Source: Escherichia coli
GTDB lineage: Bacteria; Pseudomonadota; Gammaproteobacteria; Enterobacterales; Enterobacteriaceae
Direction: 5' to 3' (one strand)
Assembly: GCF_003334765.1 (NCBI RefSeq)
Contig: NZ_QOWT01000032.1
Length of the DNA: 45,825 nt
Positions within the stretch are counted from its first letter, which is position 1. Each line of letters starts with the position of its first letter. Position numbers and translations under genes: made by a program. Under the pieces are notes generated by a model. It ran no database searches. It saw nothing but the letters and a program-made list of their open reading frames with translations, and was not told the origin of the DNA. Below are positions 6,959 to 18,126 of the stretch, piece after piece.

Positions 6959-8098
6959 TTAGTACAGAGAGTGGGTGTTACGTTCAATATCTTCTTTGGT
7001 GATACGACCGAACATTTTCCAGTAACACCAGGCGGTGTAGAGCAGAATGATCGGTACCAGAACCACCGCAACCCAGGTCATGACGTTAAGCGTCAGCTGG
7101 CTGGAAGTTGCATCCCACATTGTCAGACTTGCGTTCATCATGGTGCTGGACGGCATCACAAACGGGAACATTGCGATACCGGCTGTCAGGATGATGCAGG
7201 CCAGCGTCAGGGAGGAGAACACAAACGCCCACGCGGCTTTATCCATACGTGCAGTCAGGATGGTCAGCAGCGGCAGAACCACACCCAGTGCCGGAATAGC
7301 CCACAGAATTGGCGTGTTGTTGAAGTTAACCAGCCATGCGCCAGCTTCACGAACCACTTCTTTATTCAGTGGGTTAGAGGCTGCGTAATGGTCCATTGTC
7401 GATTTCACGACATAACCATCGATACCGTACATCACCCATACGCCAGCCAGTGCGAAACAGACCAGTGTCACCAGCGCAGCCACCTGAGCCGTTGCACGGG
7501 TACGCAGGTGCAGTTCGCCCACGGTACGCATTTGCAGATAGGTTGCGCCCTGAGTAATGATCATCCCTACGCTCACCACGCCTGCCAGCAGGCCGAACGG
7601 GTTAAGCAACTGGAAGAAGTTACCGGTGTAGTACAGACGCAGATATTCATCAACGTTGAACGGTACGCCCTGCAACAGGTTACCGAACGCTACACCAATT
7701 ACCAGCGGCGGAACGAAGCTACCAATGAAGATGCCCCAGTCCCACATGTTACGCCAGCGGGTTTCTTCAATCTTGGAGCGGTAGTCAAAACCGACCGGAC
7801 GGAAGAACAAAGACGCCAGCACGAGGATCATCGCCACATAGAAGCCGGAGAACGCAGCGGCATAGACCATCGGCCAGGCAGCAAAGAGTGCGCCGCCCGC
7901 GGTGATCAGCCAAACCTGGTTACCGTCCCAGTGTGGTGCAATGGAGTTAATCATAATTCGACGCTCGGTGTCGTTACGACCGAGGAAACGGGTGAGCATG
8001 CCCACCCCCATGTCGAAACCGTCAGTGACTGCAAAACCAATCAGCAGAACGCCAACCAGCAGCCACCAGATAAAACGCAATACTTCATAATCGATCAT
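6959..8098 (-). CDS. cydB: Cytochrome bd-I ubiquinol oxidase subunit II
   Basis: 379-aa polytopic membrane protein. Confidence 0.96.
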   Translation of the reverse strand: MIDYEVLRFIWWLLVGVLLIGFAVTDGFDMGVGMLTRFLGRNDTERRIMINSIAPHWDGNQVWLITAGGALFAAWPMVYAAAFSGFYVAMILVLASLFFRPVGFDYRSKIEETRWRNMWDWGIFIGSFVPPLVIGVAFGNLLQGVPFNVDEYLRLYYTGNFFQLLNPFGLLAGVVSVGMIITQGATYLQMRTVGELHLRTRATAQVAALVTLVCFALAGVWVMYGIDGYVVKSTMDHYAASNPLNKEVVREAGAWLVNFNNTPILWAIPALGVVLPLLTILTARMDKAAWAFVFSSLTLACIILTAGIAMFPFVMPSSTMMNASLTMWDATSSQLTLNVMTWVAVVLVPIILLYTAWCYWKMFGRITKEDIERNTHSLY

Positions 8099-8113: not shown

Positions 8114-9682
8114 TTAGCGTGCCGGCTGAGTAGTCGTGGAAGACTGCTCAAAGTGATAGCGACCGGTTTTCAGGCTGCTTGGGCCGAGGCGTGCAAACTT
8201 GAACATTAAGAACAATTCTGCCACCAGGAACAGGGTATACAGGCCGCAAATCAGCACCATTGAGAAGATGAGATCGCCTGCGGTCAGTGACGAGTTCGCC
8301 ACAGCTGTCGGCAGCACTTCACCGATAGCCCACGGTTGGCGGCCATATTCAGCCACGAACCAGCCCGCTTCTACAGCAATCCACGGCAGCGGAATACCGT
8401 ACAGCGCGGCGCGCAGAAGCCATTTTTTCTCGCCAATGCGGTTGCGGATGACACTCCAGAAAGAGAGCGCGATGATTGCCAGAAGCAGGAAGCCACACGC
8501 CACCATGATACGGAACGCAAAGTACAGCGGCGCTACACGCGGGATGGAGTCTTTGGTTGCCTGTTGAATCTGCGCTTCAGTCGCATCAGCCACGTTTGGC
8601 GTATAGCGTTTCAGCAGCAGACCGTAACCGAGGTCTTTCTTCATGCTATTGAACTGGTCACGAACCGCCTGGTCGGTAGAACCAGAACGCAGTTGTTCGA
8701 GCAGAGAGTACGCCTTCATCCCGTTACGAATGCGTTCTTCATGCTGCACCATCAGCTCTTTCAGGCCGATAACCGGGGTATCCACGGAACGCGTTGCAAT
8801 GATGCCCAGTGCGTAAGGGATCTGAATCGCAAATTTGTTCGTCTCCTCTTCCTGATCAGGAATGCCGAACAGAGTAAAGGCAGCAGGCGCAGGTTGCGTT
8901 TCCCACTCGGCTTCAATAGCAGCCAGTTTGGTTTTCTGCACGTCGCCCATTTCGTAGCCGGATTCATCACCCAGAACAATAACAGACAGAACAGCAGCCA
9001 TACCGAAGCTGGCAGCGATAGCAAAGGAGCGTTTAGCGAAGGCGAAGTCACGACCTTTCAGCATATACCATGCGCTGATACCGAGGATGAACATCGCGCC
9101 AGTCACATAACCAGACGCTACAGTGTGAACGAATTTCACCTGAGCAACCGGGTTAAGCACCAGCTCGGAGAAGCTCACCATCTCCATACGCATAGTTTCA
9201 AAGTTGAAATCGGACGCGATTGGGTTTTGCATCCAGCCGTTCGCAACCAGAATCCACAGTGCGGACAGGTTTGAACCGAGCGCCACCAGCCAGGTGACAC
9301 ACATATGCTGAACTTTACCCAGACGATCCCAACCGAAGAAGAACAGACCTACAAAGGTGGATTCGAGGAAGAAGGCCATCAGACCTTCGATTGCCAGCGG
9401 CGCACCGAAGATATCCCCTACATAGTGGGAATAGTAAGACCAGTTAGTCCCGAACTGGAACTCCATGGTCAGACCGGTAGCCACACCCAGAGCGAAGTTG
9501 ATACCAAACAACTTGCCCCAGAACTTGGTCATATCTTTATAAATCTGTTTGCCGGAGAGGACGTAGACCGTTTCCATAATGGCCAGCAGGAACGCCATAC
9601 CGAGCGTCAGTGGCACAAAAAGGAAGTGGTACATCGCGGTCAAGGCAAACTGTAAGCGCGACAGTTCGACTATATCTAACAT
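8114..9682 (-). CDS. cydA: Cytochrome bd-I ubiquinol oxidase subunit I
   Basis: 522-aa protein [20 protein letters not shown]...; start set at the second Met of the ORF. Confidence 0.96.
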
Positions 9683-9964
9683 CATGACTCCTTGCTCATC
9701 GCATGAAGACTCCGAGAGTGAACCCCGTTAGAAAGGGTCACACGCATGCCCCAATAGAAATTTGTTTGAACACTTTCATCATACCATGTGAATGCACACA
9801 AAAACGGCGTAAAGAAAGGTTGCAAACATGTTAATAAAAACTCAAATTGATCCCACGTATATATTACGCCGCAAAATCCTTACAATAAACAGGTTTTTGT
9901 TGAAGCAAATTTGCATTTTTCGACGGTGATCAATTTATAGCTAAATTACCGCCTTTCAGCCAAT

Positions 9965-9978
9965 TTGATCGAGAACAA
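9965..9978. promoter_or_regulatory. Second FNR-like site TTGAT-CGAG-AACAA (9/10 match)
   Basis: ttgatcgagaacaa, about 50 bp from the perfect site. Confidence 0.4.
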
Positions 9979-10016
9979 TTTATCTCTTTTTGATGCCCAT
10001 TTCCAAGACTTATACA

Positions 10017-10030
10017 TTGATAAATATCAA
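10017..10030. promoter_or_regulatory. Perfect FNR/CRP-family palindrome TTGAT-AAAT-ATCAA
   Basis: ttgataaatatcaa read directly; matches FNR consensus TTGAT-N4-ATCAA 10/10. Confidence 0.6.
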
Positions 10031-10308
10031 TTCCTACAAATTATGTTAATCATGTTTCAATAAGGTAACTTTAGTGACATTTATGTTTAAAATGTGTGAG
10101 TTATAAGGCTGAAATTAGTTTCGGTTGGCAATTAAAGATAAAAAGAGACGAAGCAAAAACAGCACGGTTGACCTTAATTCTTTTTTTGGTCACTGGCTAA
10201 TACGACGCAGAGTTTCAGGATTACTAATAAAGGCATAAATCCACCCCGCCAATATTAACATTTAGTTAACTTATAATTATATTATAATTAACTCACCCAG
10301 GGTTATTA

Positions 10309-10341
10309 TTTTGTTAAAAATAAAGCCACATATACGTGGCT
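10309..10341 (-). terminator. Candidate rho-independent terminator of the mngAB transcript
   Basis: Hairpin agccac-atatac-gtggct (10324-10341) followed on the minus strand by TTATTTTTAAC. Confidence 0.45.
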
Positions 10342-10367
10342 TGAGAGTGAAGATAAACGCAAAATTA

Positions 10368-10466
10368 CCTGATGCGCTACGCTTGCCAGTGTCTACATCA
10401 TCTCTGCAATATATTGAATTTGCCTGCTTTTGTAGACCGAATAAAGCGTTCATGCCGTATCCGGCA
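10368..10466. repeat. Degenerate REP/BIME-like element downstream of mngB
   Basis: cctgatgcgctacgcttgcc ... gtagaccgaataaagcgttcatgccgtatccggca resembles REP Y and Z units. Confidence 0.5.
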
Positions 10467-10528
10467 TGAACAAAGCGCCCTTTGTCAACAATCTGGCCGC
10501 GCATATGTGGCTTCGGTTTGATTGCTAT

Positions 10529-13162
10529 TCAGGCAAGCCGGTAACTGAACGTCCGTGACTGGCCGGGTAAAAAAGGCCCCGATAGATTTGAACCTTGATT
10601 TTCCTCGGTGGTAATGTGTTCATCCATCATCGTTTCTGAGCAAGAAATCACCTCGCGACTGAAAGCAACAGTCGCATCACAGGTTGCTGATTCAGCCGGA
10701 TTAAACAGCCGTAAAATCACTTCTTGTCGGTCTTCAGCTTTCTTAAGTGCGCTTATCAGGCATCCCACTGGGGGCATTTTCAACAAACTATAACTTTCCG
10801 GCACGTTGAATCCGGCTTTGTTGAGCTTCATCACATCCCATGGGATTTTGTTGTAACACTGTACTGGAGTCAGCCATGCTCGCGCCTGCTGAGCTACACC
10901 AGCGGCGGTTGGCGTACCGGTATAACTCAATAAACTTAGGCGACAAGAAAGCAGACCACGTAGTTGTGAGTCCGGGACTGGCATTTTAATTCCCGAAGGC
11001 CGCCCAGGCCTTAAAAGCAGATCTTCTTTGCCCAGTAAGCCCACGCCACGCAGCAACGTAATGGCAAAGGTTTTCTTCTCTTCACCGATGACTTCAAATT
11101 CACGTAACCCTTCGCTAAAGACAGCCATGCCGTTACGCCCTTCCTGTAAGGCAACATAGTTGAGCATATTCCATACCGGAACCGGCGCTTCTTTCCAGCC
11201 TTCTTGCTGCCAGTTGTTCATTGCACTGTCGTTCACGGGGCGCGTTAGCGAACCAAACTGCGTATCTGCCAGAACACTGTCGGTGTTAAAAGGTGTAGGG
11301 ACCAGGACACGAAGGCGATGATCGTCAGCCTGGTTATCAAGATTGATATCCACATCAATACGCCTGCTGTTATGACTAAGAGTGACAACCAACACCACCC
11401 CTACTCTGCCAGTGGATTGCCGGGCGCTGCGTTCTGACAAATTGAGCGGCACTGCCATGTCATAGCGGATAACAGCCCTGCTCTGCCAGGCTTCATGAAT
11501 AATATCGCATTGCGGTTTCGCGTTCGCTGCGGTAATTACCCACTCTTCTTTTGCGGGTGAATAGTCATATTCATCACCATCATCAGAGCTTTCTTCAATT
11601 TGCAATACCCGGTCATAGCGCACACCGCTGTCTTTATCTACCAGTTGCAGAGAACCATCCTCATTGAGCGCAATTTGCCAGAAAGCATTTTCCAGTATCC
11701 CTTCAGCGTCACTTTTTGCCGCAATTACGTTGCCAGGCTGATTCGCTTCGATATAAAGCGTGCGATAGCCCATAGAAGGGACAATCTGGTTGATCTGTAT
11801 ATCAAACTCCATAAAGGGATCGTAATTACCGTAATGAACTATTTGCCGATCGATTAGGCCTGGATCGATCTCACGGGCATGGCGAATAAAATACGGTACA
11901 GGCTGACCGCGATCGTCCCGCAAATTAAACTGGCTGGCGCGCAGCCGCACAGTGGTGTTGATAACTTCTTCACGCGGCCAGGGCATCAGGTTAAACAGGA
12001 CGAGTTTGTCGGCGTCGCTCTGCGGCATGTTGTCGGCAATTTTGCGCATGTAGAAACGAATCAGATTATCCGCCATGTCTTCAGCCAGTTCGAAGCGGGC
12101 GACGATTTCGCGATGAACTTTGTCACTACAGCAGCAGCCGATACTGTCGTGGGCATGATTTTTTAAGATCTCTTTCCACATTTTCTCCAGCAAGCCGTGG
12201 TGGTATTCAAAACCCAACGTCCAGGCCAGTGTTGCCAGCGGTTCCAGCAGATTAACAATCTTATTTTCAATACGCGCGTGGGCAATTTTGATATCCATAC
12301 GCGTAGAACCGATGGTGCGATGCACGCGCATATATTTGCCATCAATAAATTCCCCTTTCAGGGTTGCCAGATTATCTCGCTGCGCTTCGATCTTCTCAAA
12401 TACCTCTTCAAAGCGGCTCATCACAAACTTACGTTGAGGGTAGATCTCACGTAGCTTATCCATCACTTCGAAGATATTTTGCTGCAATGGCATCTGGTCA
12501 TGCCCATTCGGCAGCAAAATCTCTTTGGTTACAGACGCTTTTTCCAGCACGTCAAAATAACTGTCGAGGCGTTTACGTAATCCGTTTTCGTCGGCAGGTA
12601 AGTACTTACCGATGGCGTAGCCCAGCGGCAGCACCTGCGCCGTCACTTCGCTACCGTCACTGCTTTGCCACAAAAACTCGGTTTTATCAGTACCGTGGCG
12701 CTCCGAACATCCGCGCCAGAACATGGTGCGGGTAATGCCAAATCCATTGTAGATATGCGGCAGTTGCCCGGACATGCCAAAGGAATCTGGTAAATAACCT
12801 ATTTTCATCGGCTCGCCAAACGCGAGGCAGTCACGCATTCCGTACATCAGATTACGGACGATGGATTCCGCAGAAACAATCGTGGTATCGGTCTGGGTAT
12901 ACCAGGGGCCGATAATCAACTTGCCGGCTTCTACCTGTTTCTTCACACGGTCTTTGTTTTCCGGTTTCACCGCGAAATAATCTTCGAGGATCGCCGTTTG
13001 CCCGTCGAGTACGTAATATTTGTATTCGTTGTCCTGTTCCAGTCGGCACAGGATCTCTTCCATATTATTGACCAGCAGAATACGTGACTCTTCGGTGGTG
13101 AAATACCACTCTCGATCCCAGTGCATATGCGGGGTGATGTGAACGCGAGATACTGCTTTCAT
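10529..13162 (-). CDS. mngB: Alpha-mannosidase MngB (GH38; mannosyl-D-glycerate hydrolase)
   Basis: 877-aa ORF with GH38 N-terminal signature. Confidence 0.93.
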
Positions 13163-16960: not shown

Positions 16961-18126
16961 TATTTCCCCTCCACTGCGGCAACAACCTGCTGAGCTGCAT
17001 CCGTCAGACCTTTTGCTGCAATAATATTCAGGCCGCTGTCAGCCAGTTTCTTCGCGCCGAGTTCGGCGTTGTTACCTTCCAGACGTACCACGACCGGTAC
17101 GTTAACACCCACTTCTGCTACCGCGCCGATGATACCGTCAGCGATCAGGTCGCAACGAACGATACCGCCGAAGATGTTAACCAGAACGGCTTTCACTTTG
17201 TCGTCAGAGAGGATGATTTTGAACGCTTCGGTTACACGTTCTTTGGTTGCGCCGCCGCCAACGTCAAGGAAGTTAGCCGGTTCGCCGCCGTGCAGTTTAA
17301 CGATGTCCATCGTACCCATCGCCAGACCTGCGCCGTTAACCATACAACCGATGTTACCGTCCAGCGCAACGTAGTTCAGTTCCCACTGTGCAGCCTGTGC
17401 TTCACGCGGATCTTCCTGCGACTGGTCACGCATTTCGCGCAGATCAGGCTGGCGGAACAGTGCGTTGCCGTCAGCGCCCAGTTTGCCGTCGAGGCAAATC
17501 AGATCGCCCTGTTTGGTGATGACCAGCGGGTTGATTTCGATCAACGCCAGGTCGCGCTCCAGGAAAATGGTCGCCAGGCCCATGAAGATTTTGGTGAACT
17601 GCTGAACCAGTTTACCTTCCAGACCCAGTTTGAACGCCAGCTCGCGTCCCTGATACGGCATCGGGCCAGTCAGCGGATCAAGCGCAACTTTATGGATCAG
17701 GTGCGGAGTTTCTTCCGCCACTTTTTCGATTTCCACGCCGCCTTCGGTGGAGGCCATAAAGACCACACGACGGGAACTACGGTCAACAACGGCACCGAGA
17801 TACAGCTCTTTAGCGATATCGGTCGCTGCTTCAACCAGAATCTGGTTAACCGGTTGGCCATTGGCATCTGTTTGATACGTTACCAGACGCTTGCCCAGCC
17901 AGTTTTCTGCAAAAGCACGGATGTCTTCTTTGCTGTTTACAACTTTCACACCGCCCGCTTTACCGCGGCCACCAGCGTGAACCTGACATTTCACTACCCA
18001 CGGACCGGCACCGATTTTTGAAGCGGCTTCTTCTGCTTCGCGCGGAGTAGTACAGGCATAACCCACCGGTGCTGGTAAGCCATAGCGGGCAAAAAGTTGT
18101 TTTGCCTGATATTCATGTAAGTTCAT
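16960..18126 (-). CDS. sucC: Succinyl-CoA synthetase beta subunit (ATP-grasp)
   Basis: 388-aa [21 protein letters not shown]...; 1-nt overlap with sucD. Confidence 0.97.

Follow-up and report, generated by a model that had tools for sequence, protein, structure and literature searches.

FNR binds DNA in its anaerobic form, a [4Fe-4S] dimer, and binding and repression therefore take place without oxygen. In Escherichia coli, the two FNR sites upstream of cydAB, Fnr-1 and Fnr-2, form half of the classic FNR/ArcA circuit in which the high-affinity cytochrome bd oxidase peaks microaerobically, a peak that matters to enterobacteria growing in the gut. The closest described systems are ndh and yfiD (grcA). 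The ndh gene is reportedly repressed by tandem FNR dimers, a result attributed to Meng, Green and Guest in 1997, and thus resembles cydAB as a respiratory gene under anaerobic repression through two FNR sites and not one. The two ndh sites are both located upstream of the core promoter, at about -50.5 and -94.5 (44 bp apart), and repression is thought to act on RNA polymerase's alpha subunit and not by covering the start site. At yfiD, activation comes from the site nearer the promoter (-40.5) and is damped by the distal one (-93.5). Like cydAB, yfiD carries two FNR motifs about five helical turns apart, the weaker one with TTGTT in one half; unlike yfiD, cydAB is repressed on balance, with a proximal site that probably overlaps the start point. 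The yfiD motifs, TTGATTTAAATCAA at 2714579 and TTGTTTTACATCAA at 2714632, are 53 bp apart in the published list of FNR motifs (PMC3688515, Table S6), where only one ndh motif scores above threshold.

The window analyzed here (the whole stretch of DNA, 45,825 nucleotides) contains cydAB and its control region. As cydA is on the minus strand, this control region reads in reverse in the window. The genes and the two FNR sites are as follows, with P1 denoting the cydAB promoter described further below:

8114..9685, minus strand: cydA, which heads the regulated operon (open reading frame list)
6959..8098, minus strand: cydB, after cydA (open reading frame list)
10529..13162, minus strand: an 877-aa open reading frame upstream of cydA (open reading frame list)
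10017..10030: Fnr-1, the upstream FNR site, TTGATATTTATCAA on the cydA strand, 10/10 match, centre at -53.5 relative to P1
9965..9978: Fnr-2, the downstream FNR site, TTGTTCTCGATCAA on the cydA strand, 9/10 match, centre at -1.5 relative to P1

The original prediction, made from the sequence, was of a perfect TTGAT-N4-ATCAA palindrome at 10017-10030 and a near-perfect one at 9965-9978, about 50 bp apart and some 300-350 bp upstream of cydA in an AT-rich control region. A sequence check found both where they had been placed. The first, TTGATAAATATCAA, matches the consensus at 10/10 positions and the second, TTGATCGAGAACAA, at 9/10, with AACAA where the consensus has ATCAA. On the cydA strand these become TTGATATTTATCAA for the upstream site and TTGTTCTCGATCAA for the downstream one. 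Their centres are 52 bp apart and lie at -341.5 (10017-10030) and -289.5 (9965-9978) from the annotated ATG, which in K-12 corresponds to window position 9682. The 843-bp intergenic region is indeed AT-rich, with 36.7% G+C against 50.5% for the whole window.

This 843-bp mngB-cydA intergenic region is an exact match to that of E. coli K-12 MG1655. It was matched in all 5426 complete E. coli genomes, 3172 of which aligned at >=99% identity over >=80% of the query and have cydA and mngB as the annotated flanking genes. In NC_000913.3, the two FNR sites fall at 771110-771123 and 771162-771175. Coordinates in U00096.2, the older version found in the literature, differ from these by 777, and a window position equals 780363 minus the U00096.2 coordinate, a conversion confirmed against the K-12 sequence and by the cydA start at 770681 (Kim et al. 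2012).

The identity of the locus allowed a direct comparison with published FNR mapping, the check that had been proposed for the palindromes, and the mapped sites coincide with them base for base. Among the predicted FNR sites in Table S6 of Myers et al. 2013 (PMC3688515) are TTGATATTTATCAA at 770333 and TTGTTCTCGATCAA at 770385 (U00096.2), which convert exactly to window 10030-10017 and 9978-9965. Both motifs are assigned to cydA and flagged at an FNR ChIP-seq peak, and their PatSer scores of 14.9 and 14.05 are both above the published threshold (PMC3688515). The summit of this peak is given as 770,404 (Table 1 of the same study), that is, window 9959, or 12.5 bp from the centre of Fnr-2. 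The resolution of ChIP is too coarse to tell apart two sites at 52 bp, and the occupancy is thus a region-level result. Independently of Myers et al., Fnr ChIP-chip regions at 770097-770680 and 770355-770567, labeled "Repression, Known" for cydAB, also cover the palindromes (Federowicz et al. 2014, Tables S3 and S4). Myers et al. put cydAB in the group of operons under direct FNR repression, with Cotter et al. 1997 cited as earlier experimental evidence of binding (PMC3688515). In the published table cydAB is entered as "Repressed", and the expression ratio given there for cydA is 0.32, presumably wild type over delta-fnr.

These properties of an FNR operator were found at this locus: the inverted repeat TTGAT-N4-ATCAA at both sites, anaerobic FNR occupancy in vivo (from published ChIP, at region level), FNR-dependent expression of the downstream operon (from published tables), and purifying selection on the half-sites relative to spacers and flanks, as seen in a second E. 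coli promoter allele and in an alignment of 14 Enterobacteriaceae sequences. We put at about 95% the probability that the palindromes are the published Fnr-1 and Fnr-2, through which FNR lowers cydAB transcription when oxygen is absent. The finding is correct but already known, the window being the known locus itself: compared with the E. coli K-12 cydAB sites (Cotter 1997; Govantes 2000; Myers 2013), it is the same DNA with no differences. Nothing new about the FNR/ArcA circuit follows from the finding itself, and its value is that of a method check, in which a reading of raw sequence recovered a real, well-characterised element and assigned it correctly.

To see how the sites are maintained, we looked first within E. 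coli. The second promoter allele, present in about 2245 genomes, is ~84% identical and matches only from about 10055 to cydA, and mngB is not adjacent. It keeps the half-sites of both FNR sites while the spacers are changed, giving TTGATATAAATCAA, and TTGTCGTAGATCAA or TTGTTGTAGATCAA. Among the 14 Enterobacteriaceae sequences, all 10/10 half-site positions of Fnr-1 are invariant and its 4-bp spacer is variable; in Fnr-2, TTG and GATCAA are invariant, and positions 4-5 and the spacer vary. A broader cross-species set of 120 loci, one genome per species, was collected with a degenerate pattern for the N-terminal coding sequence of cydA, chosen independently of the FNR motifs. For the 103 cydA loci with >=450 bp of upstream sequence, site pairs were spaced 50-52 bp in 28/78 against 0.025 in shuffles, the loci behind these counts being related to one another and the counts not independent events. 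The spacings by genus were:

52 bp: Citrobacter, Enterobacter, Kluyvera, Superficieibacter, Pantoea
51 bp: Yersinia, Morganella, Arsenophonus
50-51 bp: Vibrio
50 bp: Photobacterium

The tandem 50-52 bp spacing persists between orders while the flanking sequence has fully diverged. These alignments show what appears to be selection on the FNR half-sites and on their spacing. Published comparisons point the same way. Conserved Fnr sites were predicted at cydAB in ten genomes of Enterobacteriaceae, Pasteurellaceae and Vibrionaceae (Ravcheev et al. 2007), and two putative FNR sites are described at the Pcyd promoter of V. vulnificus (PMC6764401). Control of cydAB by Fnr is predicted to be shared between families, from Yersinia to the Pasteurellaceae and Vibrionaceae, and our own scan agrees. 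What both papers report in the passages concerned is the presence of sites, and the constant 50-52 bp tandem spacing was measured here.

The mechanism depends on how the sites lie relative to the promoters. Myers et al. place the top-scoring cydA site at -53.5 from the transcription start (Table 1, PMC3688515), which puts the start of P1 at 770393 in U00096.2, or window 9970. The promoters and the ArcA regions around the FNR pair are:

9970..10005, minus strand: cydAB promoter P1, inferred core, with -35 TTGGAA at 10005-10000, -10 TAAATT at 9982-9977 and a 17-bp spacer
9854..9889, minus strand: downstream cydA promoter, with its transcription start at 9854, -10 TAATAT at 9866-9861 and -35 TTTATT at 9889-9884
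10252..10282, minus strand: ArcA region 1, distal (Park et al. 2013: 770081-770111, ATATAATTATAAGTTAACTAAATGTTAATAT; the sequence is present in the window)
10052..10103, minus strand: ArcA region 2, directly upstream of Fnr-1 (Park et al. 2013, Table S2: predicted at 770260-770311)
9807..9837, minus strand: ArcA region 3, proximal, downstream of the 9854 start (Park et al. 2013: 770526-770556, GCGTAAAGAAAGGTTGCAAACATGTTAATAA; the sequence is present in the window)

With a G at 9970 as its start base, P1 would begin ~288 bp upstream of the cydA ATG. It is to this promoter that the FNR pair belongs, which refines the original prediction. Correctly spaced hexamers lie exactly where the -53.5 position predicts them, and the -10 hexamer is conserved in the 14 Enterobacteriaceae sequences. 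P1 so placed would be a weak but correctly spaced sigma70 promoter. A sigma70 consensus scan called neither P1 nor the 9854 promoter and found promoter-like sites to be no commoner than in shuffles; P1 was missed because it is weak (4/6 + 4/6). Given the 52-bp spacing and Fnr-1 at -53.5, Fnr-2 would sit at -1.5, over the P1 start. Relative to the P1 start so placed, Fnr-2 would cover about -8 to +6 and Fnr-1 -60 to -47.

The main profiled start is elsewhere. Transcription start site profiling placed the cydA start at 770509 with a 5' UTR of 172 nt and a matching upstream sequence (Kim et al. 2012), which is window 9854, 116 bp downstream of the P1 start. An anaerobic sigma70 ChIP summit at 770509 coincides with this profiled start, and sigma70 binding events at the cyd promoter have been reported 110 and 120 bp apart, separations that the 116-bp gap between the two starts fits. 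The block AAAAACCTGTTTATTGTAAGG...GCGGCGTAATATA (window 9845-9895), the promoter of the 9854 start, is nearly invariant in the 14 Enterobacteriaceae sequences. Neither FNR site overlaps the 9854 promoter. Its start is 117 bp downstream of Fnr-2, and simple occlusion therefore cannot explain repression of this promoter.

The predicted co-control by ArcA was borne out as well, with three ArcA ChIP-seq regions flanking the FNR sites (Park et al. 2013). The predicted site in region 2 overlaps the ChIP-seq peak centre at 770262 (Park et al. 2013, Table S2), and its TTAACA repeats are conserved in the 14 Enterobacteriaceae sequences.

A mechanism can be proposed from this layout. Without oxygen, FNR would keep its [4Fe-4S] cluster, dimerise and occupy both Fnr-1 and Fnr-2. 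Fnr-2, lying across the -10 hexamer and the start of P1 (centre -1.5), may occlude RNA polymerase, and Fnr-1 (centre -53.5), which lies upstream by five helical turns and faces the same side of the DNA, may assist or bind cooperatively. FNR occupancy would then block or disable RNA polymerase at P1, with cydAB transcription going down about three-fold under full anaerobiosis. As oxygen falls, ArcA-P on the flanking sites would raise cydAB expression, and it is proposed to relieve H-NS repression (after Govantes et al. 2000b, as related in papers citing it). Acting together, FNR and ArcA would make cytochrome bd maximal under microaerobic conditions. The motif matches, the in vivo FNR occupancy of the region, the FNR-dependent repression and the conservation of half-sites and spacing are all established. 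By contrast, the occlusion of P1 by Fnr-2, a cooperative part for Fnr-1 and the way in which FNR affects the promoter 116 bp downstream of P1 are inferred. The 52 bp between the sites corresponds to about five turns, a 50-52 bp spacing is conserved, and both sites may be needed for full repression. Taken with a main promoter that no FNR site overlaps, the constant spacing is a small reminder that the repression is not fully explained by occlusion.

The alternative that survives best is that Fnr-2, over the P1 start, regulates alone and that the perfect Fnr-1 is dispensable or purely auxiliary. Fnr-2 is the site positioned to occlude RNA polymerase, and the ChIP summit is nearer to it. Work by Govantes and colleagues from 2000 reportedly found Fnr-2 essential and Fnr-1 to have a lesser role, and is counted on this side. 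However, Fnr-1 is the better conserved of the two sites, with 10/10 positions invariant in 14 sequences, and two orders have kept the pair at a 50-52 bp spacing. The invariance of Fnr-1 and the constant spacing argue that both sites, as well as their geometry, are under selection, and we consider regulation by Fnr-2 alone unlikely, at perhaps one chance in a handful.

A third FNR-like element, on the minus strand at window 9920-9933 (TTGATCACCGTCGA), is found a further 45 bp downstream, counted from Fnr-2, and falls near +44 of P1. In the 14 Enterobacteriaceae sequences, its left half TTGATC is invariant and its right half, (G/A)TCGA, is conserved and differs from ATCAA; E. coli agrees with the consensus at 8/10 positions and Citrobacter at 9/10. 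The spacing histogram owes its peaks at 45 and 97 bp to this element, which is missing from the published FNR motif list (PMC3688515, Table S6). It comes directly after a conserved TATAAA, a possible -10 hexamer, and may therefore instead mark the start of another cyd promoter. A bolder reading is that the 50-52 bp pair, which extends to the Vibrionaceae, and the third element of the Enterobacteriaceae belong to an older and larger FNR array of fixed geometry that silences the main promoter remotely. The complex involved might be a higher-order FNR assembly or one of FNR, ArcA and H-NS. We regard such an array as improbable; if true, it would mean silencing at a distance, 116 bp downstream, unlike simple occlusion of P1.

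That the palindromes arose by chance in AT-rich DNA, FNR acting on cydAB elsewhere or only indirectly, was weighed against shuffled sequences. A G+C content of 36.7% favours A/T-rich motifs. Over the whole window, perfect TTGAT-N4-ATCAA matches number 2 against 0.06 expected, and sites with <=1 mismatch number 6 against 2.1 expected, with 3/100 shuffles reaching 6. The sites with <=1 mismatch are by themselves less remarkable, a mild enrichment across the window that leaves some room for chance. For the pair, the null consisted of 5000 dinucleotide-preserving shuffles confined to the AT-rich intergenic region. A perfect site appeared in 12/5000 of these intergenic shuffles, and a perfect site together with a second site of <=1 mismatch appeared in 0/5000 of them. 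The pair of cydA palindromes is not explained by chance.

The window also holds an internal control. The only other perfect TTGAT-N4-ATCAA palindrome in it, TTGATTTCGATCAA at 17531-17544, is located within sucC. It appears in Table S6 (762819, TTGATCGAAATCAA) as high-scoring, with no ChIP peak and with overlapping H-NS and Fis enrichment (PMC3688515). An equally perfect palindrome that is unbound in vivo speaks for the chance reading, and it follows that a perfect match alone is not sufficient; this "silent" site is useful as a negative control. Occupancy, position and conservation set the cydA sites apart from it. With a ChIP-seq summit 12.5 bp from the Fnr-2 centre and both motifs flagged at the peak, and with half-sites that are invariant across genera while the spacers vary and a spacing kept out to the Vibrionaceae, the chance explanation is effectively refuted.

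That another protein of the CRP/FNR family, for example CRP, is the main binder instead of FNR was rejected as highly improbable from the half-site and spacer pattern and the FNR ChIP data: CRP and FNR are of one family and recognise related inverted repeats, but TTGAT/ATCAA half-sites with a 4-bp spacer are the FNR pattern, unlike the TGTGA-N6-TCACA of CRP, and the ChIP signal here is that of FNR. Peaks also enriched in the delta-fnr control had been excluded from that data set (PMC3688515).

Several other features of the locus were noted. Within the cydA coding sequence, a 9/10 FNR-like match, TTGATACCAAACAA at 9498-9511, is missing from the published motif list and is probably due to chance. 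In the 5' leader of cydA (9683-9760, minus strand), Enterobacteriaceae show almost no variation over the ~75 nt that precede the ATG. The final ~30 nt, GGAGTCTTC.TGCGA.GAGCAAGGAGTCA, contain GGAGTC twice and are conserved as far as Yersinia, Serratia, Photorhabdus and Providencia. A short hairpin, GUGACCC...GGGGUUCAC, lies immediately upstream, with compensatory changes in Kluyvera, Enterobacter and others. An Rfam search of 9600-10600 returned no family, the sole hit being a sub-threshold one to ES036 (E = 0.15), and the fold of the 179-nt leader was no better than that of shuffles (z = -0.24). A 21-codon upstream open reading frame (ATGCGTGTG...TCATGA, overlapping the cydA ATG) was rejected on account of frame-breaking indels of 1-2 nt in several genera and of the absence of a third-position variation pattern in the 14-sequence alignment.

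Further upstream, terminator-like hairpins were found downstream of mngB on the minus strand at 10323-10342 and 10447-10472, the latter in REP-like sequence. A 75-aa open reading frame (10277..10504) spans this stretch; some strains have it annotated as a hypothetical protein, an annotation that is probably spurious.

In E. coli, the cyd promoter (window ~9700-10055) exists as two alleles, the K-12 type having mngB adjacent in 3172 genomes. The upstream neighbours of the second allele are hypothetical proteins or a TPR pseudogene, and its cydA protein is identical. This allele is closer to E. albertii than to the K-12 allele. The two alleles become 100% identical again about 100 bp upstream of the ATG, suggesting an old boundary of recombination or replacement linked to the mng locus. 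In E. coli LR-31, the mngB-cydA intergenic region carries an IS1A element at window ~10300, ~620 bp upstream of cydA and near the distal ArcA site, with FNR sites and proximal promoters left intact.

Outside the enteric bacteria and vibrios, a different layout was seen. In Xanthomonadales, a single, mostly perfect FNR-type palindrome is found ~75-97 bp upstream of the cydA ATG (8 Stenotrophomonas loci), and in several alpha-proteobacteria an FNR-type palindrome lies ~60 bp upstream of it (3 loci). Unlike the distal pair of enterics and vibrios, this single-site arrangement could reflect activation by a protein of the FNR/Anr/FixK type and not repression.
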